A DNA stretch of 61,849 nucleotides from contig CAXNAA020000002.1 of NCBI GenBank assembly GCA_964200075.2, positions 1 to 61,849 of the forward strand, read 5' to 3'. The DNA is from Sphacelaria rigidula. Lineage: Eukaryota. This document shows, in pieces, positions 496 to 53,629 of the stretch. Below the pieces are notes generated by a model that was given only the letters and a program-made list of their open reading frames with translations, did no database searches and was not told where the DNA came from. How positions within the stretch are numbered: the stretch's first letter is position 1; each line of letters begins with the position of its first letter. The translations under genes and the position numbers were made by a program.

Positions 496-2014
496 TCAGT
501 CATGACTGGTGAGATATGTGCCCGTCAGTTTGCAAAGGTGACACAAGTAGACCAAAATGATCACAATCACAAGAATGGTAAATTCAGAGGACTAAATGAT
601 CGTCTACGCAAGAGAAGCTCATGAAAGTCCATATCATGAATACGCGAACCCAGTTCTTCTTCGTATCCTGCACAATCCGGATCCTCTCAGGGCCGTTGCC
701 TTGTTGGAAGTAAGATATCTGATCCATGGATAGCGGCCAAGAATCCTGGTTTTTTTGGGCCAGAATTATAACACAACAGCTCAAACTGGTACAGAACAAC
801 GGCAGTACCTTTTTACGAGGTACGGAGGTACTTCGTGACAGACCCAATTATTTTTTTGGCGGGTTGGGATTCTTACACATTGAAAACCGCCCGGTACATT
901 CGCGCGTTGTAAATGCAAGAATGAAATGTCTTGTGTGTCATTCACAGTCTGGCCACACGTTGGTCGATGGATACTTGAATGGTGGCATGAACGCCGCACG
1001 CCACCTCAACCATTCAGGGGTTCGACTGGTGCACACTTGGAAGCCAGGCCACGGAAACATCCCTCATGAGCGTGTTCATCGGGGCAATCGTATTTTTCCA
1101 GCTGACTTATGAACAAGCGATTCTTGATCAGCTTTTGGGGAAGCTGATGAGTCAGTCCCAACTTTGGGTTGCCAAGGAGCATGCACATGTAGAGGGCAGG
1201 ACTTAATCACCCCCTGTGGTTTTTTTGTTGAATTGCCTTTGCGGGAGTAAGTAAGTACACTGTATCGAAAGACATAGCACGAGTCCGAAATTTACTGCAC
1301 AAGCCAGAATCCAGCCGTAGAATGAAAATACAAACAGTAGGGCTCTGAATACAACACTGGAGGTCGCCAAACAAGGCATGCAGAGCAGGCTACAGTTGGC
1401 GATTGTGCACTGCATCATCGAACACCAGGATTGCACTGGTAACCTTGGCAATGTTGACTTTGTTCTGCTATCGTATCACGCAAGTTGCTGGGTATTATTG
1501 GTGGAGACATACTATACTCTATGATATCCCGATCCACACTCTGGTGTTCACAGGTATTTTACTAAGTAGCACTTGAACACCGTTAGCGATAATCGAGGCA
1601 TACAACTGATATGAACTTACAACGGGAACCAATCCCGTAGCGGAATTTATTGATCGATTGTAAAGACATCTGTAACTCAAGACCAGACAATTACATGTAG
1701 ATTTCACCAGCTGTACTTTTTCATGTCTTAACCTTAGCTGTTCGTTTTATCGGAGAGAAGGATCCCACTCTCTCTCCCACTCAGTAAAAGCCAAAGACCT
1801 CATATACCATGGAGATGAAACACTCACGGCGTCCATCGATCGGACGCGCAGACCAGCGACCCGTCGACCTACGGTAAACGCCTGGTACGTATTGTTCCGC
1901 CTAAAATTTTGCCCCCAACCCAGGTAGGAATGGTGCTAGAGTTGCGACGTTTAATTAAAACGACAATGGGCTCGGTGGATTGCTATTCAATATAATCAAA
2001 TACATTTTACAACG

Positions 2015-2686
2015 ATGGCAACGTCCACAATATATAGGTGCGCATCGATCGACATCGGCGTCATCAACCTTGCGTTTTGCGTGGTGGAGTTCACCGAAAC
2101 ATGTGACGGAGCGTTCACGTTTAATCTTGTCCACATGGAACGCGCGACGATCGGTGACGCGAAAGAGACCATTCACGTCCTGGGGAAAAAACTCTTGACA
2201 TTTTACGGCACCAATGATGCGTTGCAACACAAGAAGCTGGACTACGTGTTCATCGAGCAACAGCTCTCTCGTGCAGTAAAAAATATCGTGCTCGCTTACG
2301 TCACCATGGCGTATTTCGAAACAAAGTGTCTTGGTGAAGACAATACGACAATCGTCTTCGCCTCGCCTAAATCCAAGTTCAGGGCTGTGAGATACGCGTT
2401 TCACGAAGATGTGCTCGACTCCATCAACTTCAACTGCCATGGGCGTGAGCTGAAAAAATTGTCGGTGAAAATTGCCCAGGTAGTATTCAAGAGATTCGGC
2501 GTACAAGTCGGATTGGACAGTCTCATCCGATACAAGAGCAAACTTGACGACGTCTCAGACGTTTTCCTCCAAAGCTTTGTTTTTTTCCTGGAAAAGTTTC
2601 CGTCAAAGTCACGCGGTCACCAAGGTAGACTTTCCTTGTTTGTTGGAATTGAAGAGAACGAATGGACAGCGCGAAGACGCCGATGA
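2015..2686 (+). CDS. Holliday junction resolvase, poxvirus A22/RuvC-like
   Basis: SIDIGVINLA, VFIEQQ and KLDDVSDVFLQ RuvC-fold catalytic motifs; intact 223 aa. Confidence 0.88.
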   Translation: MATSTIYRCASIDIGVINLAFCVVEFTETCDGAFTFNLVHMERATIGDAKETIHVLGKKLLTFYGTNDALQHKKLDYVFIEQQLSRAVKNIVLAYVTMAYFETKCLGEDNTTIVFASPKSKFRAVRYAFHEDVLDSINFNCHGRELKKLSVKIAQVVFKRFGVQVGLDSLIRYKSKLDDVSDVFLQSFVFFLEKFPSKSRGHQGRLSLFVGIEENEWTARRRR

Positions 2687-2972
2687 AAAGACATAAGAGG
2701 TGACAGTCGTGACGATCGATTGTGATATGAATTTCGTAGTTACCATTCTTCTCTCCCCGGGTTGATCTTGTGTGAAGGACAGGGGTAGTGGACGTCGTGG
2801 AAACATGTCCGTCCGTGGCCACGACGGCACCAAGAGAGGACTGTGGCTTCATCAGTTGTTTCGTGATCGTTCTCAGCAATTCTTGTGCGAAGATGGGGCC
2901 GTATGCGTCGCTGAGCAGAGCCGGCATTGTGTCATATAATACAGAACAGATATTATTATCATCGCTGGACAA
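2523..2972 (-). CDS. Hypothetical viral protein (3' end uncertain, overlaps resolvase)
   Basis: ATG after AT-rich spacer; no motif. Confidence 0.4.
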   Translation of the reverse strand: MSSDDNNICSVLYDTMPALLSDAYGPIFAQELLRTITKQLMKPQSSLGAVVATDGHVSTTSTTPVLHTRSTRGEKNGNYEIHITIDRHDCHLLCLFIGVFALSIRSLQFQQTRKVYLGDRVTLTETFPGKKQSFGGKRLRRRQVCSCIG

Positions 2973-3096
2973 CTATTTTTATGACCATTTTTTCCCACCC
3001 AAAATGTTCTGAAAAGTTTTGTTGGTATCCGCACCACCTTCCTCATTCTTGCAGCGCCACCCCGCTCGCCCACGACGGCAACAAGGCTCGCGCAAC

Positions 3097-4046
3097 ATGT
3101 CTTCGGCTCCTTTCATCCCAGAGTCGGTGCTGGCGTTTTTTGCGGGTTCAGGTGGCATCAACGTCCTCGCATCTCCCTTGTTTCTTAAAAAGCACACGGG
3201 ACAGTCCCGAGTTTTCCTTCCCATCCATGACATTTACCACGCGGGTAAAGACAATGACGGGAACGCTGTGTACACTGTGTACAGAATCTTGGCTAAAGAG
3301 TACAAGCACAACACGATCCAGGGAATGCTGTGTGTCTCGCTGGTTTCCGGGTACGGGGTCAAGGACGACGGTGCTCGTGGCAGCAGCAATTCGACGTTCA
3401 TGCGACCAAACGACTTGAAGAAGTTGATGACGGAAGGAACAACAGCGATCAAGCGCAACTCGGTGGTGGCATTCAAGACGGGGATGGTGTGTCAGGCTGG
3501 AGGATATTGAAATTTTCTGCGATCTTCCCATAATCAACAGGAGAGACCTCATCGACAATCAGAGCGTTGGTGGTGTGATCAAACGCGACATGTACAAGAG
3601 AGACAGGGGCGAGCCAAACTGGGCGCCTGTCAAGCAGGGGGCACTCATCAAAGACATGGAGGCTTCTGTTCACCAACTACTCCTCCCGTACTACAGGAGG
3701 TACAGGGACAACAAGGACGACGCCACCCACTTCTTCAAGGCGTTCATGGAGGACATGATACGGACGTGCACTGCGCCACCACAAAAACTTCACGGATGGT
3801 GGTGACTTCGGTGATTTATTGGGTGATATTGTCGAGAGAAACCGTAAGAGGTCGTTTCCTTCTTTGCAGACGGAGACGCGCCCACGGAAGAAATGGGGGG
3901 GCAAGTCGGAAGTCACTGCAAGCAGCACAGCGATGCCGGTTTCTCCAGGCTCATCCAATCGGGACCAGCGTCAAACGAACAGGGATGTTGTCAAGGAAGC
4001 TTTGAAGAACGTCTCGAGAGAGAAAATGGCGGCGATTATTTTTTAA
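3097..4046 (+). pseudogene. Hypothetical viral protein broken by two frameshifts
   Basis: ORFs 3097-3510, 3575-3805 and 3819-4046 join across a G-run (~3481) and an A-run (~3785). Confidence 0.55.
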
Positions 4047-4093
4047 ATCGTAAAGTTTTCTTTTACCTTTTTTCCAAGAATGTATGATAAATA

Positions 4094-4531
4094 ATGTTTA
4101 TCAAGTTCATCAACATGTCGAGGTTTTCTGACTTCAGTCTGTACAACAGAACGGACGAGCAACTGAGGCCCGCCGAGAAAAGGCTCAGCTGTCAGTTCCA
4201 CTCAACGGTAAATATCCAACTTGTTTACAAACGAGCCCAGTCGGAGATAGATTCGCACATCCTGTACTCCGACGTGACGACTACAATGGATGCGGTTTTC
4301 AGACTCGCGATCAGGACTGAAAATCTACCCGGGGTCGTGGAGATGAACACTGATGTACTCCACAGGCTTTCCGATGCAACAGAAAGGACGAACACAAGTC
4401 AGCATCGGTTCGTCGAGAGGGTTTTCAAAAACAGCAACGTTCCGGCTCAATTTCTTTCAAGGCCGTCGTTTAGTTCTCACAACGACGATAAAGATGGTGG
4501 TGATCATCCTATCGAGCTTTTAAGGCGATAA
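4094..4531 (+). CDS. Hypothetical viral protein
   Basis: 145-aa ORF between AT-rich spacers. Confidence 0.55.
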   Translation: MFIKFINMSRFSDFSLYNRTDEQLRPAEKRLSCQFHSTVNIQLVYKRAQSEIDSHILYSDVTTTMDAVFRLAIRTENLPGVVEMNTDVLHRLSDATERTNTSQHRFVERVFKNSNVPAQFLSRPSFSSHNDDKDGGDHPIELLRR

Positions 4532-4586
4532 AATATAATGCAATCACAATATTGTCACGGAAGCAACGATTCGTGACGACAACTTA

Positions 4587-5864
4587 TTATGCTTCGGGTG
4601 GCAGAGTCATTGACGGTGTCGTCTGGTCGTTGCCGAAAATTGAAGTGGGGATGGCTGACGTCCCGGGACCTCGCATGGTTTTCCTCCTAAGTTTGTCGGG
4701 CTCTGGTGTGCGTGAATCAGGAGCAGGAGGATCCTTTGTAGGAGGCGTCGAACGAGGAATAGGGTAGTTTTTGGAACTCGCAGAGTTGGCACTGTTCAGC
4801 ATCCCCATCATGTTCATGACGGACGACATCGGACTGGGGCTTGGCTTTCTCTTTTCGGTAGAATCATGGCCTCGACTCCTTCCAATGGCATTACCGGCGT
4901 GGTGGAAAATGGCGGCTGACGTGAACGTGAACATGATTTGCATCTCTGGTCCGACGGAAGATCGTCCCGAGTACTTGTGGTGTATCTGTTCATAGCAGTC
5001 GTCATAGTCGTCCAAATTGAGCATCATACTCTCGGAGAAGCCTTCCAGCCGTAGGTTGAACGGGTTGAAGTAGGCGTTCCCGGTTTCGACCAAAGTTGTG
5101 ATGGTCACCAGAACGCGCCTCATAATCTTGATGGACTTTTTGGAATTGCTTTCCCTCTGCATGCGGTAACACTCGTACCTTATCTCGTCGACGTCGTCTT
5201 TGATATTCCACTCCTTTGTCACCGTGAAACCATTCTTTGACAAGTTTGTTATGCGCGTGAGCATCTCGACCTTCTCGTGAAGCAGTTCTTCTTTCCGTTT
5301 TTTCTTTTTACGGGCTATTTTGCCGGAACTGCCGGCGGAAGAACGGCTTCCGGAGAGCGCGGACGAAACCGTGTCGCTCCGCGTCGAAGATCGAGACGAC
5401 ACAGATGAAATCGACGAACGGTTCGAAGAAGAGGTTGACACCGATGGCATGGACGACGACGACGACGACGACGATGCGTATCCTTTTTTCGCCGTGACCT
5501 TTTTTCCGTCTTTCACGGTGTTCTTCTTTGTCTTGCTCCGCCCTACCGAATCCATTTGATCGACGGGGCACGTCTTCAGCAAATTAACCAGTGTTCCAAA
5601 GAGCTGGGAATTCGTATCGGGCTTGACGACGGGAGTTGGTTGTGCAATTGCCGGAGAGGGTGGCGGCGGCGTCGTCGATACACCTGGTTTCTTCTTCGTC
5701 GCGACCGATGGTTTTTTCTTTTGGATGGCTTTGACATTGTTTTTTTTGGTCGCTTTCCCCATCTTACCCACAAAATCGATCGGTGGACGAGGAAAACTTG
5801 GCGTCATGTTGGACTGACCAGCTTTATTCATATCCTGGCCTATGATGGTCTTCATGGACTTCAT
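4587..5864 (-). CDS. Conserved NCLDV protein (DUF5767-like) with Ser/Lys-rich N-terminus
   Basis: Block EIRYECYR...NPFNLRLEGFSESM...DYDDCYEQIHHKY...GPEMQIMF..AAIFHH typical of this family. Confidence 0.7.
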   Translation of the reverse strand: MKSMKTIIGQDMNKAGQSNMTPSFPRPPIDFVGKMGKATKKNNVKAIQKKKPSVATKKKPGVSTTPPPPSPAIAQPTPVVKPDTNSQLFGTLVNLLKTCPVDQMDSVGRSKTKKNTVKDGKKVTAKKGYASSSSSSSSMPSVSTSSSNRSSISSVSSRSSTRSDTVSSALSGSRSSAGSSGKIARKKKKRKEELLHEKVEMLTRITNLSKNGFTVTKEWNIKDDVDEIRYECYRMQRESNSKKSIKIMRRVLVTITTLVETGNAYFNPFNLRLEGFSESMMLNLDDYDDCYEQIHHKYSGRSSVGPEMQIMFTFTSAAIFHHAGNAIGRSRGHDSTEKRKPSPSPMSSVMNMMGMLNSANSASSKNYPIPRSTPPTKDPPAPDSRTPEPDKLRRKTMRGPGTSAIPTSIFGNDQTTPSMTLPPEA

Positions 5865-5974
5865 GGCATTCAGTATGCCTTTGTCGTTTGGCGGGGTCGG
5901 CGTGGGTTGAAACGTCAGATAACTAAATGATTAATTTTATTTTTGGCAATCTCGACGCAGTCAAAACAAATGCA

Positions 5975-6289
5975 TCATAGATTCAGACTTTCCTTCATCT
6001 TCTTTAGCCCCCCAAGTGCGCCGACCACGACTAAGTTGTTTTCACGAAGGCTCTGGATGTCCATCAATCTCTTCTTGATCTCGTCGTTGTTAGTAGACTG
6101 TATCTTTCGGAGACTTGCGATTTCACTGTCGATCACCTCCTGAGTGTAAGTCATTGACCCTTTCTTTGGGGTTTGTTGCTCAAATTGTTGGCGGACATCC
6201 TTGCTGTGTTCCCCGCCCGTGGTGTTCGACATAAACATTTCCGACATCGGAATCAAAGGATTTTGCTTTGAGGCGCCGCTGTCGGTCAT
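5975..6289 (-). CDS. Hypothetical coiled-coil viral protein
   Basis: 104-aa ORF, heptad-like C-terminus. Confidence 0.55.
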   Translation of the reverse strand: MTDSGASKQNPLIPMSEMFMSNTTGGEHSKDVRQQFEQQTPKKGSMTYTQEVIDSEIASLRKIQSTNNDEIKKRLMDIQSLRENNLVVVGALGGLKKMKESLNL

Positions 6290-6405
6290 TGTCGCGTTTA
6301 ATGTTGATATACTATAGTTTATACAAATTTAATATCTTTGTTTGAACGCGCCGGAAACTTATCTAATTACTTTGTATCGGCCGTGGTCCTGCTTCAGTGT
6401 TATTC

Positions 6406-7371
6406 ATGATGGAAAACGGCGACGCTGGTATCATCAGCAAGCCCCCGGAGACGGACGGGTTTCACCATTTGACGAAGAGGATCAAAACCAATATGAAGAA
6501 CACGACACAAGATCCCAAATTTCTCGAGAAAATGAACGCGTCCTTCCCGAACGTGACGTGTACGATAGACAACTTTGTTGGTACTTCTGGAAAGCATGCC
6601 GGTAGCAACGCCGGCGACAACGGGTGGCAACATGGCATGGAGATGGACGCCAGAGGCCAGGATGCGGACGATTGTCCGGACTTCAGGGACGACACCGCCA
6701 ATTGTCTTTCGAAAGAATGGCTTTGTGAAGCTTGTAACAAAGAGTTGGTCTATATACGCAAAGATGCAGAAAGGGTCTGCCCGGACTGCGGTCTGTCACA
6801 CCCGTACCAGGAGATGACCAAGGAGGACTGTATCCGACAGGGATACGTGAGCCACACCACACACATGTACAAGAGACAGAATCACTTCAAGACCTGGCTC
6901 AAGCGCACTCAGGGGAAAGACACTACGACGGTGGACACGGAGGTGGTCGATAGCGTGCGCCTCGAACTAAAGAAGCAACGCGTGGATGACGTGACGACAG
7001 TCACCCACACCAAAGTCAGAGAGATTCTGAAGAAACTGCGCCTGAACAAGCACTACAATAACTGTGTTCAAATCACGTCGATCATCACGGGCATCATGCC
7101 TCCACAGATGACGAACGAACAGGAGACGGCTCTTCTACAAATGTTCGACGTAATACAGGAACCTTTTCAGGAAATCATACGGAGCGAGCCCCGACAGAAC
7201 ATGCTGTCGTACTCGTTTCTTATTCACAAATTCCTGGAGATTATGTCTTGGGACGAATATCTTCCGTACTTCCCCTTGCTTCGCTCCGTCGACAAGATAC
7301 AGTATCAGGACTGGATCTGGCGGAAACTCTGTGCCAAAGTCGGGTTCCAGTACATCAAATCGACGCTGTGA
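6406..7371 (+). CDS. VLTF3: Viral late transcription factor 3-like (poxvirus A2 family)
   Basis: CxxC..CxxCG zinc ribbon, YKRQNHFKTWL..QGK, LKKLRLNKHY, NMLSYSFLIHK, YFPLLRS..K..QD.IW.K.C. Confidence 0.93.
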   Translation: MMENGDAGIISKPPETDGFHHLTKRIKTNMKNTTQDPKFLEKMNASFPNVTCTIDNFVGTSGKHAGSNAGDNGWQHGMEMDARGQDADDCPDFRDDTANCLSKEWLCEACNKELVYIRKDAERVCPDCGLSHPYQEMTKEDCIRQGYVSHTTHMYKRQNHFKTWLKRTQGKDTTTVDTEVVDSVRLELKKQRVDDVTTVTHTKVREILKKLRLNKHYNNCVQITSIITGIMPPQMTNEQETALLQMFDVIQEPFQEIIRSEPRQNMLSYSFLIHKFLEIMSWDEYLPYFPLLRSVDKIQYQDWIWRKLCAKVGFQYIKSTL

Positions 7372-7374
7372 TCA

Positions 7375-7850
7375 TCAATGTATGTCTTCCTGTGCGGGCA
7401 AGGGGTCCGTTGGCGGCGGCGCCAGTGGTGTCTTTGGCGGTATATCTGGCGTTGTCGCCGGAAGCGTTGTCGTGGCTGCCAACGATGGCCATGAGTTCGG
7501 GCCTCCGTTGCTGTCTCTCATGATGGATTCCTTGATAACCGGATAGACACGTCTCTGCATGTGATCGGCGAAATGTCGTCCGCTACGGAAATATGTTTTT
7601 TTCGATTCCTCGGTGGCTGCCATTCGACACCTCTCTTCGTAGTCGGTGAAGTTGTGTAGCCAATGCATCGTTGCACACTCTCTAGCAACCGTGGCGGCGG
7701 TCCACTCTGGAGAAGTCTGTGCGTTGATAAAACATGAGCAGAGCCTGCTGTCGTATCTCAGCACCAGACTGAGTTTCGACAGCTCTTCTTCCAGTTGATT
7801 CTTTCTTCCATTTCTAGTGTTGAATGTCTTGCATCTCGCGAATGCTTTGT
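7375..7850 (-). CDS. Conserved hypothetical viral protein (start uncertain)
   Basis: RKNQLEEEL..L.LVLRYDSRLCSCFI motif seen in NCLDV proteins; upstream part of the called ORF is spacer-like. Confidence 0.45.
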
Positions 7851-7899
7851 ATTGAGTTGTTTTTGTATAGAATATAAATATTATAATATATAGAAGAGA

Positions 7900-8133
7900 A
7901 TGGACGAGTCGGCAAGAGACACGGACGCCCAGCAACAGGGAAAGAGAGTAATGACACCAGCCATCGAGAGTATGACCGTCAAGGAAGAGAGAGCATGTCT
8001 CTCTGAAATACGAAAGCTGGGCTCGGACGTCGATCATCGGTATTTATTGTCAAATGGTTGGACGACGGGCAAGTTTGCCCTCATGTACGTCACAGGGCAG
8101 CATGTGAAGCGAAAAACAAAAACAAAGAAATAA
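7900..8133 (+). CDS. Hypothetical small viral protein
   Basis: 77-aa ORF after AT-rich spacer. Confidence 0.5.
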   Translation: MDESARDTDAQQQGKRVMTPAIESMTVKEERACLSEIRKLGSDVDHRYLLSNGWTTGKFALMYVTGQHVKRKTKTKK

Positions 8134-8153
8134 GAAACACACAGACAACCGCT

Positions 8154-8825
8154 TCAAAGCTCGAGTGTAATATGACGCCGACCCCGAGCCTTCTGAAACA
8201 TGACGTCCATCATCTTCTCCAAGAAGGACGCCGTGGTATACATGATATCGGCGGATGCCTTTTCCATCGATGCCATTGACACAGAGACAGAGAACCGTCG
8301 TGGATCTCTTTCAGCTTGCTCCTTGGTCTCGCCTTGCCACACGACAGCCAGATGGAACTTCCAGGATGACCTCTGGGATTCGTCCTCAAAAACTTTCTCC
8401 GACTTGATCTCCACATTCTTGTACCTTGAATCGTGGTACGAGCTGCTGGTGTAGTCGAGCTCGTCCCTGCGAACTTTTTTTATGACAAACTGCACGTATT
8501 TACACGCCGATGACCCGTGCACCGTCTGTAACACGTGCTCTCTGAAAACGACTGTCCGCTGCCCCCTGTTGGTGTCCGACACGACGATGTCGTCCTGCGG
8601 ATGCTGTATCGTGTATTCGATACCAGTGTCCCACTGGCTGACTGACTTCCAGCTAGTGGAAGATTTCATGTGATTGTGGATGTTGATGAAGTTCTGGTTA
8701 TCGGTGAAGAATTATCCCCTGATCATGAAGGACGGGCGAAGGTCTTAGAAGAAAGACGACGCTTTGACGACACAATTTTCATCTTTCGCGTGCCTGTAGT
8801 AGTAACCTTCATCGTCGTCAGCCAT
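8154..8825 (-). pseudogene. Degenerate CYTH/RNA 5'-triphosphatase (Cet1-like) fold protein, frameshifted near N-terminus
   Basis: F..I...M....W.....W....EY and VEIKSEKVF...SWKFHLAVVWQGETKEQAE..P.RFSVSVS resemble the tunnel-triphosphatase pattern but lack the ExE motifs. Upstream MADDDEG.. frame joins via a shift near 8715. Confidence 0.45.
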
Positions 8826-8946
8826 ATGCAGACAAAAGAAACTGCAAACTTTGTCTAATAAATATGCTAGTCAAGACAAAATGAATTTTGTAGTGCTGTG
8901 TTCAACTGTTTCCAATCATCTTTAATTTACAGGTAATTATGACGCG

Positions 8947-9405
8947 ATGGGATTGCGATGTCAAGCTGTGGAGAGGCGTACCGTACCGTGTTCTTTGCCG
9001 ACATTCCACGGTTGGCCAGTTTCAAAGTTCGATATCGTGTTGTCGTCAACGGCGCACCTTCGTTACATTTGTTGCCCCGTGTGCTGTAAATGGATCCCTG
9101 AATCCTCGCTATATCACACGTGTCAAATTAAAGCAGACGATGTCGCCGAAACAGCAGCAGCACGCTCCGATGGTAAACCAGCCGACTTTGCTATCGGAGA
9201 AGAAGACATTGTTGAACAACCCAGACAACGCGCCTGTGTTGTAGCGACGGACGAGAATTTGGGGAATCATATGTGTAACCTGTGCCAACAGCGCATGCGT
9301 CTGGAATATATTGACAATGACGATGAAGACTGGGTGTTCATGGATCGCGTCGAGCACGAGGGGAGGATCGTTCACGAACTTTGTCGAGACGTCGTTTTTG
9401 GTTGA
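8947..9405 (+). CDS. Zinc-finger protein with Pcf11-type C-terminal C2HC zinc finger
   Basis: VVATDE...CNLCQQRMRLEYIDNDDEDWVFMDRVEHEGRIVHELC matches the Pcf11/PCFS4 pattern V.ADE..CxxC.E.F...y.....eW.......G.i.HxxC. Second CPVC..HTC knuckle upstream. Start may be 8939 with a frameshift. Confidence 0.65.
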   Translation: MGLRCQAVERRTVPCSLPTFHGWPVSKFDIVLSSTAHLRYICCPVCCKWIPESSLYHTCQIKADDVAETAAARSDGKPADFAIGEEDIVEQPRQRACVVATDENLGNHMCNLCQQRMRLEYIDNDDEDWVFMDRVEHEGRIVHELCRDVVFG

Positions 9406-9494
9406 CTCGTCTTCGTTTTACAAGTCGTTCATCAGATGAACCTTTATGATGAAAAAAATATTTTGTGGTATAAAAGAGTGGAGAGAAGAAGAAA

Positions 9495-10487
9495 ATGTCG
9501 TCGACGCAGCAAGGTACCACGGTGATTCTCGCCACTATGGCGGTGTGTCTTCTTGTCTATGTCATGAAACAAGAAATCCAGGGACCACGGTCGTACCCTC
9601 GTGTAGAGGGAGTCGTCGGCGCCGTGAACAGTGCACTGGGCATCTCGAGGGGCATCGATTGCTCAAAGATCAATCCTGGTCACTCGGACTGGGCTCGATG
9701 TGCAGAAGGAGCCTCCAAGGGAAGAGTGCCGACAAAAAACCCGACGTCCGTTCTCAGGAACACCGCGCTCGATTTCGCCAGCGACTCGGTCAACAACCAG
9801 GGCCTCGGCGTCGGACGTCTTCAAGACGAATTCGTCAATGACCAGTACTCGAACAGTCTTGGCGCTCCTCGACCCGGAGGAATGAGAATCGACAAGTCGA
9901 ATCTCAAGAACAATTTCGTCTTCTCCAGCGGCACGCAAAACGCCACGAGTCTTGTAACTTCCGGAATCAGTACCGATGGTGCTCAGGCGTTTCCCTTTGC
10001 GACAAAGAGCGGGCCTGAACGCGGTGAAGATTTTCGCTCAAAGAGGATGTCGGGCGATGTGACAGGCACAGAACCGGTCGGGATGGGAATGAAGTTTGCG
10101 GACTGTAAGCGCAAAGTTGGCGGGGTTACAACGAAGCACGGAGGAATCGGCGGGTTCGCATCTCGTGCACAGGTAGACAAAAAGCTAGGCGTAGCTCCCT
10201 TCGACGAACAGGGTGCAGAATTTAATCCCTTTGTGGGGAACACATCCACCGCCTTGGGGGTGGGGCTAAAGCTCAGCGAGGCGTACGACGTGCCTAACCT
10301 TGGCATGGGGTCCAATCTGCAACAAGCCTTTCGAGACCGAGGCCTCGGTGCGGCGATGTCGCCGATATCGTCTTCCGACGTCGGTGTGTCTCCGGTTGAA
10401 ATATCGGCAGCAACCGCGGCGCTCTCTGACGTGAACATTGTGCAGAGCAAACCCGGCGGGCACATGGACCGATTTATTTGCCCATAG
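9495..10487 (+). CDS. Hypothetical viral protein with N-terminal membrane anchor
   Basis: 330-aa intact ORF, hydrophobic residues 10-25, Gly-rich. Confidence 0.7.
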   Translation: MSSTQQGTTVILATMAVCLLVYVMKQEIQGPRSYPRVEGVVGAVNSALGISRGIDCSKINPGHSDWARCAEGASKGRVPTKNPTSVLRNTALDFASDSVNNQGLGVGRLQDEFVNDQYSNSLGAPRPGGMRIDKSNLKNNFVFSSGTQNATSLVTSGISTDGAQAFPFATKSGPERGEDFRSKRMSGDVTGTEPVGMGMKFADCKRKVGGVTTKHGGIGGFASRAQVDKKLGVAPFDEQGAEFNPFVGNTSTALGVGLKLSEAYDVPNLGMGSNLQQAFRDRGLGAAMSPISSSDVGVSPVEISAATAALSDVNIVQSKPGGHMDRFICP

Positions 10488-10544
10488 TTGTCCTTACACA
10501 ATAGCGTATGTGATTGCCACACATGTCTCACTTTTCAAGTTGAA

Positions 10545-11434
10545 ATGATGCGTACCATCTCACACAGGCAACGCACAACAGACGACGATATGAAATCCGT
10601 TCAGCGACAGCCGACCGCGACTGTAACAAAGACTACGATAACAATTCCCGAGACTCCCAAGACCCCGATTTTTGTGTGTGGGGGGTCGTTGACCACTGAA
10701 GACACCGCATCGATCAGGGCCTGCCTCAAATGGCCTACTTCTTCCGATAAGCGCTGCCATAACTGAGCGCATTTTCATGACGGTGTCCCCGTCCCTCTCC
10801 CAGTGAGCAGAGATGAGCTCCGTCACGTATATTTTTGTCAAGGAAATTTTGTTCATGGCAATGTGCGAAATCATTCAACATGCGCGAGACATCTCCGGCG
10901 GGGAGAGGCAACCGAAACATGTACATCGCGTTGCTGGCGTACAAAACATGGATAAAGCTCAAAGGTTCCGTGATCGATGTCACGACCAAAGAGAAGATGC
11001 GGAAGTACTGTAACTATAGGCTGGACTCCGCGCCGCCCAAAGCGATACTTACTGAGTTTGGGGGACATGTGTCAATCGAGGAATACCGCAAAGATTTCTG
11101 CGGAATCGTTCTACCGTCACAGATCGTACAAGACACCAGCCCTCTTTTGAACATCCGGCAAATGGCTGTGCTTCCGTTGATTGATACAAATTCCACTGGC
11201 TCCTCTCCCACGAGCGCCTCAAAATAATCAGTTCAGCGTATCGAGCACGCACGATCTTTTTCGGGCACCAGACGTATCGAGACGAACCGCGTACAAGAGT
11301 TCAACAACTCCTTCGTCGATAGACTGAAGAAAGCTAAGTTAGACCCAGACATTATGAAGAGAAAAAAGAAGATGAATGTTTCCAATACTCTTCTTTCGAC
11401 CGTGGGGATAGAAATTAAAAAGAGATCAAGGTGA
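10545..11434 (+). pseudogene. VLTF2: Viral late transcription factor 2-like (poxvirus A1), inactivated
   Basis: RCHN*AHFH..VPVPLP...GNF/CSWQCAKSF...APPK..L.EFGG.VSIEEYRK. TGA at 10764, 1-bp loss in a T-run ~10848, TAA at 11225, frame continues to 11434. Confidence 0.85.
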
Positions 11435-11789
11435 TTCGTGTTTGTGAATTTCCGTGTCTGGCTTCACGGCGAACTGCGAGTAGTCTATGTCTTTGTCATT
11501 GAATGATTATTTACGACTTTTGCTATGAGTGTACGGTGGCGGGAGGCGTCTCTGCTGTTGCATCTGCGGCATCACTGGTTGCATAGGTGTCCGGGAGTAG
11601 TTACTTTCGAGAATATAGACTCTTTGACCTAAACGAGGCCTACCAATTTTGGATCGTTTTGTTCATTTCTTACGAGTAAATTAATAACTGATCTGAATCT
11701 GTTCATCCTTGTTTGACACGATCAAAAAATATATTTTTTTAGCAGAATCTGACGAAGGGTTGCATGTAGTGTAAGAGTCAGACAGAAAA

Positions 11790-12044
11790 ATGTTTGTTAC
11801 AGACAACTGTCGCTTGTTTCTTATGGAAGGACTACATCACGGTGCAGGGGGTGTGAATCTCACGAATGGAACGACGGTGTCCGACGGAGACTCATTTACC
11901 CTCATATCAGGATCGAGAATTTGGCGACTTAGAATTCCGTCCGTTCAAGAAAGCGTAGACAACATCCTGATTATGGAGGTCAAGCAGGGAACCACGTGGT
12001 ATCCGGTCCAGCAGTACGTCGTCACCGACGACTTACTGGTTTGA
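11790..12044 (+). CDS. Small protein resembling the C-terminal domain of the fibre-like paralogues
   Basis: ISGSRIWRLRI...ILIMEVKQ..W resembles the C-termini of 37954-38913 and 51375-53027. Confidence 0.5.
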   Translation: MFVTDNCRLFLMEGLHHGAGGVNLTNGTTVSDGDSFTLISGSRIWRLRIPSVQESVDNILIMEVKQGTTWYPVQQYVVTDDLLV

Positions 12045-12422: not shown

Positions 12423-12469
12423 TTTTAGTTAAATTTCATTTTTTTTGCGAAAATCTTCGAAACAAACAA

Positions 12470-17287: not shown

Positions 17288-17331
17288 AAGTGCACAATGT
17301 AATGTAGGACAGATATTTTATAATTCTCCAT

Positions 17332-41182: not shown

Positions 41183-43156
41183 ATGGAAATCCTAATATTG
41201 TCTGCATGCGGCCTCGTCGCGAATCAGTACATGAGGATGAAGAGTTCGTCGATCGTAGCCCCACCGAGCATTGCCGTCGTCGGTGAAGAAGTAGTTCAAG
41301 AACCAGAAGACATTCGACAACATCATCAACAACAACAACAACAACAATAACAAGCTATTGGTTCCTCCGACGACACGGCACCACCACCACGCCATGTCTG
41401 CACCTCCTCGTCTCCGGCACCGATACCCCTGGGTGTTCGAACTCTTAAGACAGACAACACCGGTGATGTCGGGTACGATGATTCCAGGTACAGCGAGCAG
41501 TTCAGCCACCCGCAGGACCCTAACCCGAACGTCAGTGAGAAACCGTGGATGAGAATGGCCAACGCTCCTTACAAGCCGAAGGAGGAGATCGTTTCGGAGA
41601 TTCCCGGACCTCAAGACGTCTTCGGGCGCAACATGAACTCTCGTGTGAAGAAAATGGAGTCAGACTTTGCAGCGAGCACCGTTCCCGTGACCAGCGAGAA
41701 GCAGTTCGATCGACCAGTGGAGCAGATATCCACTGGAAACGGATCGGCAATTGGATTCCACATAGGGGCTGGCAGGCGATACCACAAATTTATATTGAAC
41801 GATCAGCCGACCATCGAATCGGACGGAGGTCCAAGGGGAGCTTTCTCCGGCGCGGGAGGTTCTCATGTGAAGGGAGACTACAGAACCGTGACTCAGCGGT
41901 CATCTCTGAAGCACGAGTCCGTCGGGCCTCCGATCGCAGTGGGTGTTCCACAATCCTCCGCCCCTGTTCCTTCGTTCGAGATCACGCCTGCTCATCTTGA
42001 AACATACAGGCTAGATGATCACATGGCAAAGAGCAGCAGGACCCCAGTACAAGCCTCGGCGTCGACGGAAAATGTATCGTTTAGAGGCGCTCACGATGAA
42101 AATTTTGACGTCCTTCACACATCTCTCGTCACTGGAGGAGAAAGGTTCGCCACCGGAACATCGGGGAACCGACACACCAAAATCCATGTGCCGCTGAACA
42201 ACGACCCTCTCGAGACATACGACCAGCGCGTGGTTCCCAACTTCAAGATCGCCAAAGCTTCAGACTATCAGGAGCAGCAGATTATAGCCAGGCAGATGAT
42301 AATCCCAGAGATGTCGCAGAACGTGTCGGCCCTCCGCAAGGACCGAAAGCCTCCCGTCTCCGGGTCGACGACCCACAAAAAGAGTAGCTTGGCCATCTTG
42401 ACGGATGGCGTCAAGTCTGGAGCGGGAGCGAGGGGTTCAAGCTACTTGCCCGTGAAGGTTGACACGGACTCCTTCCGCGTGCCCGCCGACAGAACAGGCG
42501 TTGTCGCCGAGACGGCAGCTCTCGTGTCGTCCGGTGCTTCGGCTGCACACGCCGTTGGAAATTCGGCCAATTCTTCGTCTATCTTCCGCACGACACAGAG
42601 CATGTCCGAATTGGTGGGCACGCCGTTAATCCGCGGCACCGGCACTAGGCACGCGAGCAATCTCGAATCTCTCCACGAGGCCACCGACACTCACTTGTCT
42701 GAAATGGAGCGTTCGGGAATCTTACGGGGTCTTAACAAAGTTTCTACATCGAGCGCCCATTCTTCTGTACCCAAGGAGAAATCGCAACAGACACAGGAAA
42801 GAGGCGACATCTTCAAGAAAACAGAGCGCGATCCTGTGTTGGTCGCACCGGGGTTGCTGGGTACAAACCGCTCCGGAGCCGCCAATCGCGACGCCGAAGG
42901 CATGATATCTCGCAGAGGTTTGGACGACGAGGGTGGAGTCAACGTTGTGCGCGCGGGCAAGACGAACAACGTTCGGTTTTCCTTGGACAAAACACAATCG
43001 TCGGGTCCGAGCAAAGACTCGACCAAAAATCGCAAGCTTGGTGGCGTTCTGAACGCGAGAATGCGGTCTTCATCTGCGCTGAAAAAGCTCTTGAAAAACC
43101 CGTACTCTTTGCCAGCGGCGTCGAGGCTTTCTGCACTTTACTTTTGTTTGTTTTAA
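41183..43156 (+). pseudogene. Large disordered viral protein (DUF5899-like) with a stop inside a CAA repeat
   Basis: ATG 41183 is in frame with 41549-43156; TAA at 41348 within (CAA)n; YKPKEE..EQISTG.G..GFH motifs. Confidence 0.55.
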
Positions 43157-43181
43157 TTCAAGAGACATTGCTTGTAATAAA

Positions 43182-43740: not shown

Positions 43741-44895
43741 TCAATTTTCCTCAAACTGACGATCACGTATTAGGACACAAATGCGATTGCGAGTCAAGTC
43801 GTAATTCACTTCTACTCGCTCGTGGTTGTTATCGAAGATGGGGCCATCGTGCCTTCGGGGTCGGTCAACCCAACCCGGGTATGATGCAATCAACAGTGGC
43901 CCCAACGATTTGACAGGAATGGTTAAAGGCAAAGGGAATTCATATTCGAAAGTATTTAATGTTGTGAACCTTGCTCCACTAATCATAGCAACCACGTTAT
44001 CCGCACCAAAACCTGTCATGTCCACCGGGCAATGAATGACAAGTTTTCTTCTTTTCCCGAAATCTTGTGCTATTCTTCTAAACGACACAAACGATACGGT
44101 AGCCCCTGTATTATCCCCACCTTCTGGCGCGCGTACATGTATGATTGAACGTAGGTTACTCATACTCTCGTCCAGATTCTCGCTTGGCTGATTGACAGTA
44201 TTGTTAATCGTAACGCTGGTGCGCACGAACACGGCGAGCTTCAAGATTTTCATGTCATCGTCTTTTGCAGTATCCAGGCTGACTTCCGTGCTAAGAGGAA
44301 TATTGTGCGTTTTCATCCAGTCGCGGATTTCACGCACAATCCTCCCGTTGTTGAAGATCCTGTGTGTCAGTCCATATCTTACGTCGAATTTATCTCTCCC
44401 TTGTTCCATGACGGCTGCGACCTTTGCGCAAAATTCCGTGTCCGTTTGTTCACAACAGTTCCAGGCATTCTTAGAAGCGAAGGGGCCGCAGCCGGTACCC
44501 TTGTCCGGGTTGGTTCTGAACGTATTTTCTGTTGGGAGACAAATCACCTCTCTGTTTCGGGGGTTGACGAAAGACATGCCGTCGGTAGGATTAAGATCAG
44601 CAAGATGCGATCTGTCGCGTGCTTCCGGCAGATATTCTGAAATCAGTTTTCCCAGAGCGGGCTCGTCACGAATTGAACGTAAACCTTTGCGTCGCCTCAC
44701 GTTCTGTAGTAGATGATGAACTTTTTCAGGACTTACATGCTGCCTTAGAGTATTTATCGCTTGCGTTTTTCTTCTCCACTTGATCGTTTCCACGAGTTCT
44801 TGGAGTTGTTGTAGTTTATCGCTGTCTGAGACATCTTCTCGTTGCAGTAAGTTCTCAATCTCTTGTACGTCACTACTTTCCATGCTCTTTTCCAT
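43741..44895 (-). CDS. Hypothetical viral protein
   Basis: ~384-aa ORF from MEKSME. Confidence 0.65.
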   Translation of the reverse strand: MEKSMESSDVQEIENLLQREDVSDSDKLQQLQELVETIKWRRKTQAINTLRQHVSPEKVHHLLQNVRRRKGLRSIRDEPALGKLISEYLPEARDRSHLADLNPTDGMSFVNPRNREVICLPTENTFRTNPDKGTGCGPFASKNAWNCCEQTDTEFCAKVAAVMEQGRDKFDVRYGLTHRIFNNGRIVREIRDWMKTHNIPLSTEVSLDTAKDDDMKILKLAVFVRTSVTINNTVNQPSENLDESMSNLRSIIHVRAPEGGDNTGATVSFVSFRRIAQDFGKRRKLVIHCPVDMTGFGADNVVAMISGARFTTLNTFEYEFPLPLTIPVKSLGPLLIASYPGWVDRPRRHDGPIFDNNHERVEVNYDLTRNRICVLIRDRQFEEN

Positions 44896-44944
44896 GCTAA
44901 ACCTTTTAAATCTACAAACTTTCTTTTCAAGAAACCGACATTTG

Positions 44945-45227
44945 TCATCTCTGAAATGGAAATGTTTGCTGCCGATGCTTCTCTTGCGTTTCTTCCACCA
45001 CAACAACATTCTCTTCCAAATCTTCGTTGAGCTTGGTGATGTTCGCCTTTAACTTTTTGTAGTACGTCACCCGCTTCCTCGCTTGTGCGTGAAACACGGA
45101 AGCGTCGTCCACGAAATCGATGACCCGTGGCACCTGCTTCGACGGATGGTATCTTAGGATTCTCCCACAGCACTGAACAATGTCGTTGCGCGGTATCGCG
45201 AGGACGCACGTGTCGAGAGACGGGATG
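44945..45227 (-). pseudogene. Superfamily II helicase (A18-like) C-terminal remnant
   Basis: IPSLDTCVLAIPRNDIVQCCGRILR (motif VI)..VIDFVD..QARKRVTYY. Confidence 0.8.
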
Positions 45228-45344
45228 TGCGATGATCGTTGACGCTTCGGAAGCGGTGACACGTTTCTTGCGGTATTCATACCACTCGGGCGTTCTCTGC
45301 GCAATTTTTGGATAGTCAATTATTCTTTTTATGGCGGGGTGCAT
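45228..45344 (-). pseudogene. YqaJ/lambda-type exonuclease N-terminal remnant
   Basis: QRTPEWYEYRKKRVTASEASTII. Confidence 0.85.
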
Positions 45345-50380: not shown

Positions 50381-51265
50381 CTACTTCGAAGTATCTTTCT
50401 TGAAAGACGCGATAAACTTGCCGTCTTCGGTGTGAACGGACCATTTGCCGGAACCGATGTAAGAGACGGCGGTCACCCCAATCGAAGCCAGATCAAAGCC
50501 GGGACCAGCGGGACCAGCGGGACCCGTTTCACCCTTTTGTCCGTCCTTTCCACCTGGACCGCGTGGACCCTCTGGGCCAACAGCGCCGGCTGGGCCTGGG
50601 ATACCCTTTTCGCCAAGCGGACCAGCTGGACCCGGTGCACCTTTGATTGAAATGCCGTCCTTTCCTTTCGGTCCTGCCACACCTGCGGGACCGCGTGGCC
50701 CAGATTTTCCATCCTTGCCATCCTTTCCGGCCTTGCCGATGGCACCCGCGGGACCGGAGGAGCCAACGAGGCCTCGTGCACCGACGGTGCCTTTCAGTCC
50801 TTGTGGACCGGCTGGACCGGGGGGGCCCTTGGGACCCCTGGGACCGTGAGTACCAGTGACCAATTTACTGTCTGCAGAGGATGGTGCACCGGCGGGACCA
50901 GCGGGACCAGCGGGACCAGCGCGACCCGGAGGACCGGCGGGTCCGACCGGCCCGCGTGCACCGAGTGTGGCAGAGGAGTTGTTTGAAGTGGTTCCGCCGA
51001 TGATGCTCTTGAGTTCACTCTTGGTGATCTGTACAGGAGCCTTCGTTTCACCCGTAGCACGAACAACGAGCTCCGCCTTCGCGCGGTCGGCCGACGTCTT
51101 GTTGAAGATCGAGCGTACGTTTGTTGACGGGGAAGGTACCGACGAAGGAGCAGAAGCCGTGGAACCCGTGGATTTCTTTTTTTCTTCCTGTTGACGGTGG
51201 GCGCGCACGGCGCGAACATCCATTCTGGGGGATCGACCACGAGAGTTTTTTCTTGCAGAAAACAT
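50381..51265 (-). CDS. Collagen-like (Gly-X-Y) protein
   Basis: Long uninterrupted G-X-Y tracts. Confidence 0.92.
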   Translation of the reverse strand: MFSARKNSRGRSPRMDVRAVRAHRQQEEKKKSTGSTASAPSSVPSPSTNVRSIFNKTSADRAKAELVVRATGETKAPVQITKSELKSIIGGTTSNNSSATLGARGPVGPAGPPGRAGPAGPAGPAGAPSSADSKLVTGTHGPRGPKGPPGPAGPQGLKGTVGARGLVGSSGPAGAIGKAGKDGKDGKSGPRGPAGVAGPKGKDGISIKGAPGPAGPLGEKGIPGPAGAVGPEGPRGPGGKDGQKGETGPAGPAGPGFDLASIGVTAVSYIGSGKWSVHTEDGKFIASFKKDTSK

Positions 51266-51374: not shown

Positions 51375-53027
51375 TCACTGCATAATGTCCATCTTTGTCT
51401 GCCAAGTGGTCTGCGTCCCTTCGTCGTCGTGCTCAAAGTACAAGTGGTCGTGTGTTCCATCGTTTTCCATACGGATCCTCCACTGCTTGGAAGCACCAAG
51501 GTGGATGACACCGGTGTCGCTGTTGACATCGAGACCAGTAGAGCTGAGTTCGGTGACGTTTCCGCCGACAGTCAACTTCTTGTTCGCAGGCACATTCATC
51601 GTGATGGAAGATTCCCACCTCGTGTCCACGAGGCTGTACAGTACCGACGGCACCACGATTCCTGTCACGTCGGTACCGAGAGTGAACCCACCCTGGTCGA
51701 GCTCCGCGTGAGTCGTTGCGTTGTAGGCGAGGTCGATCTCTTTGTCCTCGACGCGCACCTCGGTGGAGTTGACGGTGGTGGTCGTGCCGTTCACGAAGAA
51801 GTCTCCGGTGACCGTCAGGTTGTCGGTGACGGTCGTCGCGACGTTGACGGTCGCCGCGGACTCGGTGAGAGTCATGGCCGTCGTGGGTGTTCCGGTCAGG
51901 TCTCCGAGAACGAAGTCGATCTGCGGGTCGGTCGCACTCGACGTTAGAGCGATGGTCGCCTGCTCGGCCAGTGTGTCGCTCGACGTGATGTCGGAGACGT
52001 TCAGCAAGTCGTTGCCGGTGACATCGAGTTTGCCGCCGACTGCGACGTCTCCAGTGAACGAAGAAGTACCGGACACCTCGAAGCGGTGAGTTCCCGAAGG
52101 GGCGGCACCGATGCCGACGTTGACGTTGCTGAAGGTGGCGCTCTGGTCTCCAAGACCTCCCGCAAACTTGAGACGGTCGAGGTAGGTGTTGTTTCGACCG
52201 TTAGTCGTTTGGAAAACAAGAGAGTCAGACGCGCCTCCCTGATCCGCCAGAGAAGTTCGCAGAGCCAGAGAGTTGGCCGTGTTATCGAAAGACATGGTGC
52301 TCAGGTTAGTCAGGCCGGTCGAGTCGTACATGTAGAAGTTGTTGCCTCTGTCGACGATGGAACCATTGACGTCCAAAGCCACAGGAGTGGTGTGCGCGTT
52401 CAGCACGTTGACGTGGACGAGAGGGTAGTCGGCGTTCAATTCCACAGTCGTGCCGTCGATATGCCAAGCGTTTCCGTTGGTGATCGTCTGCAGGATGTCC
52501 GTGCCATCCACGTTCAAAACACCGGTCACGTCCGTGGCAAACTCGGACATCTCTAGCCTGGTGTTCAGGTCTGTCCCGTTGGCCAGGTCGCCGACAGCGA
52601 GGTTGATCACGGGGGTGACACCGGTGCCGCCCACGATCTCGATTTCGGATCGTTTGGCGTCTGCGTCCTGATAGATTTTAGGGGCCTCAATCAGACCGTC
52701 GGTCTTTACCAAGGAAGTTTCCAGGTTGATGGAGGACGACGTGAGCGTGGAAGCAGCGTTGCTCAACTCGAGGACATTGGTCACGGCAGCGCCGTCGTTC
52801 ACACCGACGGCATAAGTGCCGACTGAGTCATCCGCGGCACCTTCGCTTACAACCACTGTTGCGAGGGAAGCCTCGGTGTCGTCAGCCGAAGGGGTGCCAT
52901 AGAAACTCTGAGTCAGGGAAGCCGCGGTCAGCCCGTCTCCTTTAACAGTCTGGAAGAGGTTTCGGGAGAACACATCTCGACCCCTCATGTTACCATACTG
53001 CGCCAAGTCAATGATTTCGGTCGACAT
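51375..53027 (-). CDS. Beta-rich virion fibre/adhesin-like protein
   Basis: T/D/G-rich; NVGIG..P...FEVSG and NLTVTGDFFVNGTTTTVNSTEVRVEDK fibre-like repeats; 550 aa intact. Confidence 0.7.
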   Translation of the reverse strand: MSTEIIDLAQYGNMRGRDVFSRNLFQTVKGDGLTAASLTQSFYGTPSADDTEASLATVVVSEGAADDSVGTYAVGVNDGAAVTNVLELSNAASTLTSSSINLETSLVKTDGLIEAPKIYQDADAKRSEIEIVGGTGVTPVINLAVGDLANGTDLNTRLEMSEFATDVTGVLNVDGTDILQTITNGNAWHIDGTTVELNADYPLVHVNVLNAHTTPVALDVNGSIVDRGNNFYMYDSTGLTNLSTMSFDNTANSLALRTSLADQGGASDSLVFQTTNGRNNTYLDRLKFAGGLGDQSATFSNVNVGIGAAPSGTHRFEVSGTSSFTGDVAVGGKLDVTGNDLLNVSDITSSDTLAEQATIALTSSATDPQIDFVLGDLTGTPTTAMTLTESAATVNVATTVTDNLTVTGDFFVNGTTTTVNSTEVRVEDKEIDLAYNATTHAELDQGGFTLGTDVTGIVVPSVLYSLVDTRWESSITMNVPANKKLTVGGNVTELSSTGLDVNSDTGVIHLGASKQWRIRMENDGTHDHLYFEHDDEGTQTTWQTKMDIMQ

Positions 53028-53132
53028 GATATTTATCGAAGACAACCTTTGCGGTGTTAGTATCTCGCAACATTTTTATTTTCCAAATTGGTACAATTTC
53101 ATTTCAATTTTTGGTTGAGCACGCCAATCGTC

Positions 53133-53580
53133 TCAGCGCGGGCCACATGGTAACATAATTTTTCTGTTTAACGCGGCTATGTAGTCAGATATGCTTCTTT
53201 CAATTCCAAATTCACTGGACTTCTCGGGCAACCTCTCTTTCTTCTTTTTTGTTATTCTGTGCATCATTGACACGGACCTCGAAAGCGTCATTCGTGACGA
53301 CGGTGTCGCTAATGTGTCGATTGTAACGTGTGTGCAACGCGGATTGGTTACCATCTTGCCCGTTATCGTCGACGCTCTCTCTGTGCTCTCGAACGTGATG
53401 GATATATACTCGTCGATGCATGAGCTGCATTCATTCCAGTATACACGAGACGCGACAACGTTGTCCGAAAAACCTACAAAGTCTGCGTGCACTGCATCAT
53501 GGAGAGAAAAACAATTGATTGGGTCGCGAAGACTCTATGGAGGCTGCTGGAGACTACTACGCCACGATAGTCACATGCTG
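53133..53580 (-). pseudogene. Last viral gene, decayed and truncated at the provirus edge
   Basis: 119-aa ORF whose frame extends upstream through stops to the junction. Confidence 0.4.
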
Positions 53581-53629
53581 ATGTGCCAGTGTTTGTAGGA
53601 GTGACACTTTTCATTTTTGCGATATGCAG

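Follow-up and report, generated by a model that had tools for sequence, protein, structure and literature searches.

Endogenous phaeoviruses of brown algae and the Sphacelaria rigidula locus

Viral pieces in Ectocarpus DNA were described by Delaroque and Boland (2008), and the Phaeoexplorer survey has reported 792 viral regions in 72 genomes, of which 81.3% are 2-50 kb long and many are partial proviruses; the survey concluded that inserted regions degenerate and become fragmented (bioRxiv 10.1101/2024.02.19.579948). Here we analyzed a contig of Sphacelaria rigidula (CAXNAA020000002.1, assembly GCA_964200075.2), whose positions 1 to 61,849 on the forward strand, that is, the whole stretch of DNA that was analyzed, are called the window below. 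The part of the window from ~1,932 to 53,492 is very probably a non-functional partial endogenous phaeovirus element of the EsV-1-like type (subgroup A), which lies in the nuclear DNA of the brown alga, is inherited with the host, and decays as neutral DNA.

Compared with the viral regions of the Phaeoexplorer survey, the element is alike in its single-exon viral genes, its host flanks, and its subset of marker genes, which includes DNA polymerase B (PolB); it stands at the upper end of the commonest size class of 2-50 kb, and there is no difference of kind. The degenerate endogenous viral elements (EVEs) reported from Porterinema fluviatile share with it frameshifts in core genes, lost markers, fragmentation, and mobile elements inside, although the mobile elements are virus-carried transposons of the IS4 or IS200/IS605 type in Porterinema and a piece of a high-copy host foldback repeat in the window (PMC11890097). 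The complete, reactivatable EVEs of Ectocarpus share their viral clade and host group with the window element, but in their description both the left and the right end are conserved, the junctions are CC-CC, and a tyrosine recombinase and intact genes are present, whereas the window element has none of those features that could be tested (PMC13236599).

In the sense of the Phaeoexplorer survey the element is a partial provirus, in which PolB (broken), the late transcription factor VLTF3, and a stump of the SF2 helicase are present. A complete or functional provirus would carry intact MCP, A32, D5, PolB, SF2, VLTF3, and RNR genes together with an integrase, and such a reading fails because VLTF3 is the only intact one among these markers, PolB is frameshifted, SF2 is reduced to 90 amino acids, and the rest are absent from the ~69 scanned ORFs and from the collinear map. 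Partial proviruses have already been catalogued by the hundreds, and this element is one further such region. It shows gene by gene how such a region decays, by length-proportional point damage, invasion by a host repeat, kilobase-scale deletions that fuse gene stumps, and stop codons that segregate between strains. The element could act as a neutral-decay yardstick for dating such insertions, and opens no new question.

Collinearity with an EsV-1-length record

Virus-type single-exon genes form one contiguous block of 51,561 bases (~51.6 kb) at window ~1,932-53,492. An earlier reading of the DNA made from the letters alone (hereafter the sequence-only reading) had placed a virus-type block of ~52 kb at 1950-53600, and the block was borne out with its edges set as given here. 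The window contains 108 open reading frames (ORFs) of at least 120 amino acids; 50 non-overlapping long ORFs and about 19 further ORFs or ORF pieces (~69 in total) were scanned against Pfam, and the matches obtained between ~2 and 53 kb were of giant-virus or phaeovirus type. The sequence-only reading had recognized no capsid, packaging ATPase, or integrase, and Pfam likewise gave no match to any of the three among the ~69 window ORFs and ORF pieces. MCP, A32 ATPase, D5, RNR, and integrase were found neither among these scanned ORFs nor in the collinear map described below. No tRNA gene was found in the window, and no Rfam family reached its gathering score there. The GC content is ~0.48-0.57 across the window and does not distinguish the block from its flanks.

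The main reference was a 335,593-bp IMG/VR record, on which lies one of two IMG/VR loci recovered with the C-terminal ORF of PolB as the query. We infer that this record is EsV-1 from the size published for the EsV-1 sequence, 335,593 bp (PMC2373305). Four record loci (L001, L005, L007, and L010) together span record positions 73,270-134,024, and their ORFs were compared with the window by tblastn. Record positions 82,219-133,916 hold 58 ORF rows, eight of which were set aside (seven duplicate or overlapping ORFs, and one 105-residue ORF whose status is uncertain and which, if kept, would be scored as broken), which leaves 50 genes. As record positions rise from 82,219 to 133,916, the window positions of these genes fall monotonically from 53,492 to 3,094, without inversion or transposition, and 46 of them have a counterpart in the window. 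By blastn, 39,849 of the 51,561 block bases align to the record at a mean identity of 72.6%, and 0 bases on either side of the block align to the viral references.

Gene content and order are thus the same as those of the record at ~82-134 kb throughout, and the EsV-1 gene order that the sequence-only reading had proposed holds against this record. The element differs from the record in that it keeps roughly one sixth of an EsV-1-like genome, with at least 18 of the 50 genes broken or truncated; it has no counterpart for a 767-residue histidine kinase and for ORFs of 284, 122, and 92 amino acids, and it has an extra ankyrin ORF and an extra 422-residue ORF. As for the individual genes named in the sequence-only reading, Pfam supports the resolvase, VLTF3, PolB, histidine kinase, replication factor C (RFC), family 2 glycosyltransferase (GT2), sugar dehydrogenase, kinase, DnaJ protein, and protease; the gene called VLTF2 has no Pfam support, and the helicase and the exonuclease are remnants.

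The resolvase lies beyond the part of the record that was covered, and in a metagenomic relative (G001) it continues the same order at 64% identity:

2015-2686, plus strand: A22-type Holliday-junction resolvase, intact ORF; Pox_A22 E 4.3e-05; the collinear open frame in G001 to which it is 64% identical is without stops

Four of eight scans of viral contigs, those for the protease, a 471-residue ORF, the resolvase, and a 492-residue ORF, gave no relative; these were pattern misses, as all four have homologues in G001 or in loci that other queries recovered.

Structure and placement of the DNA polymerase

The core gene on which the placement of the element turns is the following:

12473-15536, minus strand: DNA polymerase B, broken into two frames near 13,968; DNA_pol_B_exo1 and DNA_pol_B are on two separate ORFs (13965-15572 and 12470-13960)

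At 84-85% identity, frame -3 encodes reference residues 17-539 and frame -1 encodes residues 545-1043. An intron or an intein was considered as an explanation of the break and rejected, because the two pieces meet to within 2 nt, with a loss of only ~5 reference residues.

In amino acid sequence, the C-terminal fragment of PolB is 85% identical to the record; its best match among database proteins reaches 86%. The identity of the PolB fragment to assembly copies is 84% for Ectocarpus sp. 8, 79% for Ectocarpus sp. 12, and 76% for Pylaiella littoralis, and it is 41-42% to FsV and FirrV-1. The element is a lineage different from EsV-1, not EsV-1 itself. A PolB search scored 7,999 candidates and gave 77 proteins at E <= 1e-50. 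In a tree of 26 rows, in which the window was represented by the unmended frame (the C-terminal 496 residues, filling 47% of the kept columns), the fragment fell into a clade of 10 rows with an SH-aLRT value of 100, together with the record and the Ectocarpus and Pylaiella copies; FsV and FirrV-1 formed a separate clade, and cellular delta polymerases served as the outgroup. PolB therefore branches inside the phaeoviruses and not outside them, as the sequence-only reading required, and this placement supports a phaeovirus origin.

Junctions with host DNA

Twenty runs contain part of window 1-10,000, and four of them have at least half of the sampled words (three runs of one organism and study, and one "algae metagenome" run of another study). 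Logan contigs of runs X1, X3, X5, and X6 were compared with window 1-20,000. The features at the left edge, and the viral gene into which host DNA has entered, are as follows:

36-497, no strand: host foldback (MITE-like) repeat, high copy; inverted arms 90-248 and 288-446; 462 nt folding at -255.3 kcal/mol

498-1931, no strand: left host flank, single copy, no viral homology; shares its Logan contigs with the viral DNA

1932-2014, plus strand: left edge, remnant of the intergenic DNA preceding the resolvase gene; weak local match of 37 columns between window 1932-1968 and the D5/resolvase spacer of a relative (G001)

15587-17317, minus strand: DUF5901 gene (566-residue reference), split by a piece of the host foldback repeat at ~16,085-16,252; the inserted stretch has four stops in the alignment

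The left junction is spanned in two studies. In X1, one contig (15,714 bp) matches 474-16,187 with 0 differences; in X3, one contig of 5,003 bp extends over 474-5,443 and another of 10,753 bp over 5,486-16,187. The second study (X3) thereby shows the same left junction and the same frameshifts at 3.4-3.8, 10.8, and 13.97 kb; across the PolB break the X1 contig is identical to the window and X3 is without an indel, the only indel listed for X3 being a 12-nt insertion behind 15,635. Reads that failed to span this junction would have spoken for a chimeric assembly, and the contigs of X1 and X3 bridge it. Run X5, with a word share of 0.33, was considered as a carrier of an empty-site allele and rejected; its contigs, scattered and of 2-5x depth, show no difference from the window, as expected of a shallow run. 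The left flank has no blastn match to the viral references or to the D5-like gene adjoining the resolvase in G001, and the D5-like helicase gene next to the resolvase in a relative (the DUF5906 ORF of L009) has no counterpart in the window.

Viral loci totalling 169,996 bases contain no match to the foldback repeat. Word depth in the bin 1-667 was 64,131 in X1 and 77,836 in X3, against 26-31 beside it (26.4 elsewhere in X1). The depth of the family is ~2,400 times that of single-copy DNA in both runs, and it is present in X6 contigs too, as befits a very abundant host element. Window 16158-16252, within the DUF5901 insert, is 72% identical to positions 34-127 of the foldback; the bin 16,009-16,675 has a depth of 5,598 against 26.4 in X1, and the contigs break at 16,187/16,194. 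From this depth, the similarity to the foldback, and its absence from the viral loci, it follows that the DUF5901 insert is a piece of the high-copy host repeat.

On the right, viral homology ends within a gene, and exon-like host DNA follows:

53148-53492, minus strand: right edge, truncated viral gene, C-terminal 114 of 325 residues (208-321); viral homology stops at 53,492

53629-53700, plus strand: host LRR exon of 24 residues; borders ...tgcag|G...G|gtgagt; translation GEIPASLGQLDNLQETNLSWNQLS

53944-55569, plus strand: host TPR repeats, four separate exon-like pieces; TPR_12/TPR_10 at 53944-54594, 54060-54275, 54956-55177, and 55267-55569

The right edge had been said to cut through a gene, and residues 208-321 of the 325-residue reference gene are what remains of it. 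The block had also been described as lying between host-type repeat and intron DNA, in agreement with the foldback repeat on its left and the LRR exon and TPR pieces on its right. In Ectocarpus, ROCO-LRR and NB-ARC-TPR genes reportedly have an architecture of one repeat per exon (PMC3341825). In the window, a lone LRR exon and the TPR exons lie within 300 bp of each other on the same strand, and the viral relic directly adjoins them; LRR and TPR belong in Ectocarpus to different receptor families (ROCO and NB-ARC, respectively), and what lies here may therefore be leftover exons or a gene assembled by shuffling.

A viral fragment, free or episomal, that was misjoined to algal contigs during assembly would also place viral genes beside host DNA, and at the right junction it is sequence context that speaks for a true join. 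Contigs from two studies bridge the left junction with the same frameshifts, one viral gene harbors a high-copy host repeat, and no replicating virus could tolerate the breakage of PolB, RFC, and at least 12 other genes; we consider such an artefact extremely improbable.

Decay of the viral genes

Among the 50 reference genes, 26 are apparently intact in the window, 14 carry a frameshift or an in-frame stop, one is split by the repeat, three are truncated, two are low-complexity genes with partial matches, and four have no counterpart. The 14 point-broken genes are PolB, RFC, GT2, the histidine kinase, the Ser/Thr kinase, and the homologues of reference genes of 690, 503, 333, 314, 294, 288, 224, 144, and 141 amino acids. 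Damage was located as follows:

3094-4043, plus strand: homologue of the 314-residue reference gene in three frames, with two frameshifts; tblastn frames 1, 2, and 3 at 85%, 81%, and 65% identity; X1 contig identical

8157-8822, minus strand: homologue of the 224-residue reference gene, with two in-frame stops

10548-11431, plus strand: homologue of the 294-residue zf-FCS reference gene, disrupted by a frameshift and by in-frame stops, of which one is polymorphic between strains

18638-19960, plus strand: hybrid histidine kinase, in-frame stop near 19,513; HATPase_c and Response_reg in separate ORFs (18527-19987); single-frame high-scoring segment pair (HSP) with one stop

20255-21173, plus strand: replication factor C subunit, frameshift near 20,600; AAA/Rad17 part at 20243-20611, Rep_fac_C at 20598-21188; frames 2 and 3

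22668-24166, minus strand: chitin-synthase-like GT2, frameshift near 23,801-23,807; Chitin_synth_2 E 5.9e-20 (ORF 22557-23789); reference residues 1-121 in frame -1 and 124-493 in frame -3

25098-26006, minus strand: Ser/Thr protein kinase, one in-frame stop near the N-terminus; Pkinase E 6.5e-22 (ORF 25065-25928); HSP with one stop

41183-43156, plus strand: homologue of the 690-residue reference gene, in-frame stop at ~41,348

Forty genes, including the 14 broken ones, could be scored for point damage. Broken genes were longer than intact genes (mean of 397 versus 253 amino acids; one-sided Mann-Whitney p = 0.011 over the 40 genes), and a length-proportional Poisson model with one rate per residue predicted 25.9 intact genes, with 26 observed. 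The surviving open frames therefore need no selective explanation.

Larger losses accompany the point damage, and internal deletions of ~1-4 kb occur in the element. A deletion joint at 45226/45228 fuses the stumps of a helicase and an exonuclease, with ~4 kb lost when compared with the EsV-1-length record and ~1.7 kb when compared with a relative (L006):

44954-45226, minus strand: SF2 helicase remnant, C-terminal 90 residues; reference residues 385-474 of 477; the reference gene matches ResIII, DEAD, and Helicase_C

45228-45344, minus strand: YqaJ-type exonuclease remnant, N-terminal 39 residues; reference residues 1-39 of 208, 90% identical; the reference gene matches YqaJ and Viral_alk_exo

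Differences between the window and X3 were also assessed, with 40 of 51 single-letter differences listed and the following counts taken among those listed. The viral part accounts for 33 of them, five are in the left flank (between 1,069 and 1,916), and the remaining two are in the repeat. Of the 33, 27 were in reference-framed coding DNA (18 non-synonymous and 9 synonymous) and six outside matched frames. Two of the 18 non-synonymous differences exchange a stop codon and a sense codon: position 10,766 is part of a stop in the window and of a sense codon in X3, and position 19,757 of a sense codon in the window and of a stop in X3. The 2:1 ratio and the segregating stops, in what is a small sample, fit unconstrained DNA.

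Origin of the insertion

Both edges of the block map inside the viral genome (record ~82.8 kb and just beyond 134 kb) and cut genes. A canonical insertion by a tyrosine recombinase ends at the attachment site with conserved end sequences and CC-CC junctions, and the edges of the block are internal to the record; such internal, gene-cutting edges are not the attachment sites that complete elements are described as having. No direct repeats flanking the block were found, and the right flank has nothing in common with the rest of the window.

Most likely, a whole genome was integrated and inactivated, and the rest of it was then lost by deletion or rearrangement. A whole circular viral genome would have entered first by the tyrosine-recombinase route described for phaeoviruses, the integrated genome would have lost its function, and later deletions or rearrangements would have removed everything outside record ~82-134 kb, so that the present edges would be secondary breakpoints and not attachment sites. 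The sequence-only reading had proposed that the element was trimmed by deletion, which is plausible: internal deletions are seen, and events of this kind may have formed the edges.

Alternatively, a broken viral piece of 51.6 kb might have been end-joined directly into host DNA during an abortive infection and have decayed afterwards, without there ever having been a full provirus at this locus. Edges that are internal to the viral genome and have no attachment-site context would suit such a capture. However, phaeovirus integration has been described as the action of a tyrosine recombinase on a circular genome at a CC dinucleotide (PMC13236599), the internal deletions show that deletion has been active in the element, and nothing points positively to capture, which we regard as unlikely.

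The block might also be one piece of a larger provirus that was rearranged or interrupted by host DNA, with its remainder on other contigs and little of it lost. The window is an entire contig, and a database protein that is identical to its VLTF3 ORF over 99% of the length lies on a contig of likewise 61,849 bp. The contig ends 2 kb to the left of the block in a high-copy repeat, and in Porterinema ~30 kb of algal genes reportedly lie between an integrase and its element (PMC11890097). On the right, however, 8.2 kb of host-type DNA follow without viral homology, and the extent of gene breakage speaks against a recoverable genome, so that dispersal of a largely preserved provirus appears doubtful, albeit with some chance of being correct.

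The reading as a decayed, integrated relic of an EsV-1 relative, first put forward from the letters alone, is supported by collinearity, the placement of PolB, gene breakage, the host repeat inside a viral gene, and the left-junction contigs from two studies. Several points weigh against it or limit it. X1 may be the source sample of the window, and X3 is the one run that is clearly independent. At the right junction (53,493-53,626), integration is suggested by the sequence context, that is, the LRR and TPR exons. The deletion history is inferred, and the rest of the virus may lie elsewhere in the genome. The sample of strain differences is small, given that 40 of 51 were listed. Finally, 26 of the 50 genes keep open frames, with VLTF3, the resolvase, the protease, and the 556-residue gene among the survivors; the length test explains this by chance, and selection may still act on a few of them.

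Possible expression of surviving genes

Some of the surviving genes might have been co-opted by the host or be expressed from the relic. Run X6, guessed to be RNA, has a 1,211-bp contig on 3052-4235 at a depth of 15.8, with small contigs at 4446-4753, 5017-5364, and 7156-7332 and nothing at 8-20 kb except on the repeat, and several genes of the element keep long open frames. The stretch best covered by X6 is nevertheless a twice-frameshifted gene, random decay fits the lengths of the intact genes, and viral regions are reported to be mostly silent in the Phaeoexplorer survey (bioRxiv 10.1101/2024.02.19.579948); co-option or expression is thus very improbable. The patchiness of X6 resembles transcripts more than shallow DNA, its nature as RNA being a guess, and no RNA runs are listed among the runs matching window 1-10,000. 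One could further speculate, with hardly any expectation of being right, that the left end (~3.0-5.4 kb) is transcribed and that transcripts or proteins of the element (VLTF3, the resolvase, and the protease) might sense or interfere with incoming related phaeoviruses, given that the adjoining LRR and TPR genes are candidate immune receptors.

Other genes of the block and minor observations

Further genes of the block with a counterpart in the record are as follows:

4587-5864, minus strand: DUF5767 protein, intact; Pfam E 4.9e-30; 97% reference coverage in a single frame

6397-7371, plus strand: VLTF3 late transcription factor, intact; Pox_VLTF3 E 3.1e-58 and A2L zinc ribbon; 77% identical to the reference

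24202-25068, minus strand: UDP-glucose/GDP-mannose dehydrogenase-like gene; Pfam; 73% identical to the reference, unbroken

27072-27692, plus strand: DnaJ-domain protein, intact

30109-30936, minus strand: highly conserved gene with no assigned function; 80-91% identical to the reference

34108-35253, minus strand: papain-family cysteine protease, intact; Peptidase_C1 E 2.5e-29; 69% identical to the reference

50381-51265, minus strand: collagen-repeat protein; Collagen E 1.8e-19; partial match to a 358-residue reference gene

51375-53045, minus strand: Thr/Ser/Gly-rich gene of 556 amino acids, intact, no Pfam family; 83% identical to the reference

Two genes are extra to the EsV-1-length record:

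31357-32424, plus strand: ankyrin-repeat gene, not in the EsV-1-length record; Ank_2; 54% identical to a 361-residue ORF of a metagenomic relative (L011) between the same neighbors

43741-45009, minus strand: accessory ORF of 422 amino acids, absent from both references; within a 1.4-kb stretch without a reference match

The window-specific stretches at 30.9-34.1 kb and 43.6-45.0 kb were considered as host insertions, and this was rejected because relatives of their ORFs are found in phaeovirus-type contigs. The 422-residue ORF has no Pfam family and four relatives only (65%, 49%, 48%, and 30% identity) among 5.8 billion proteins, and a search of a protein atlas gave no usable match. One of the relatives lies on a 27,260-bp contig; a contig that carries a VLTF3 has this same length, and the two are probably one contig. 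Judged by these relatives, the ORF appears to be a rare phaeovirus accessory gene.

The 556-residue gene (51375-53045) and a 319-residue gene (37954-38913) have a C-terminal region in common, at 33-42% identity; they are a paralogous pair without a family and candidate structural proteins. A stretch of ~240 bp at the end of the ORF upstream of the DnaJ gene (26789-27027) is repeated 6.86 kb downstream, at 33649-33880, with 79-90% identity, and this second copy lies inside a stretch that is missing from the EsV-1-length record. In the right host flank, a 243-bp tandem repeat (57434-57894; 1.9 copies, 85% match) lies inside an open frame of 292 amino acids without a clear family.

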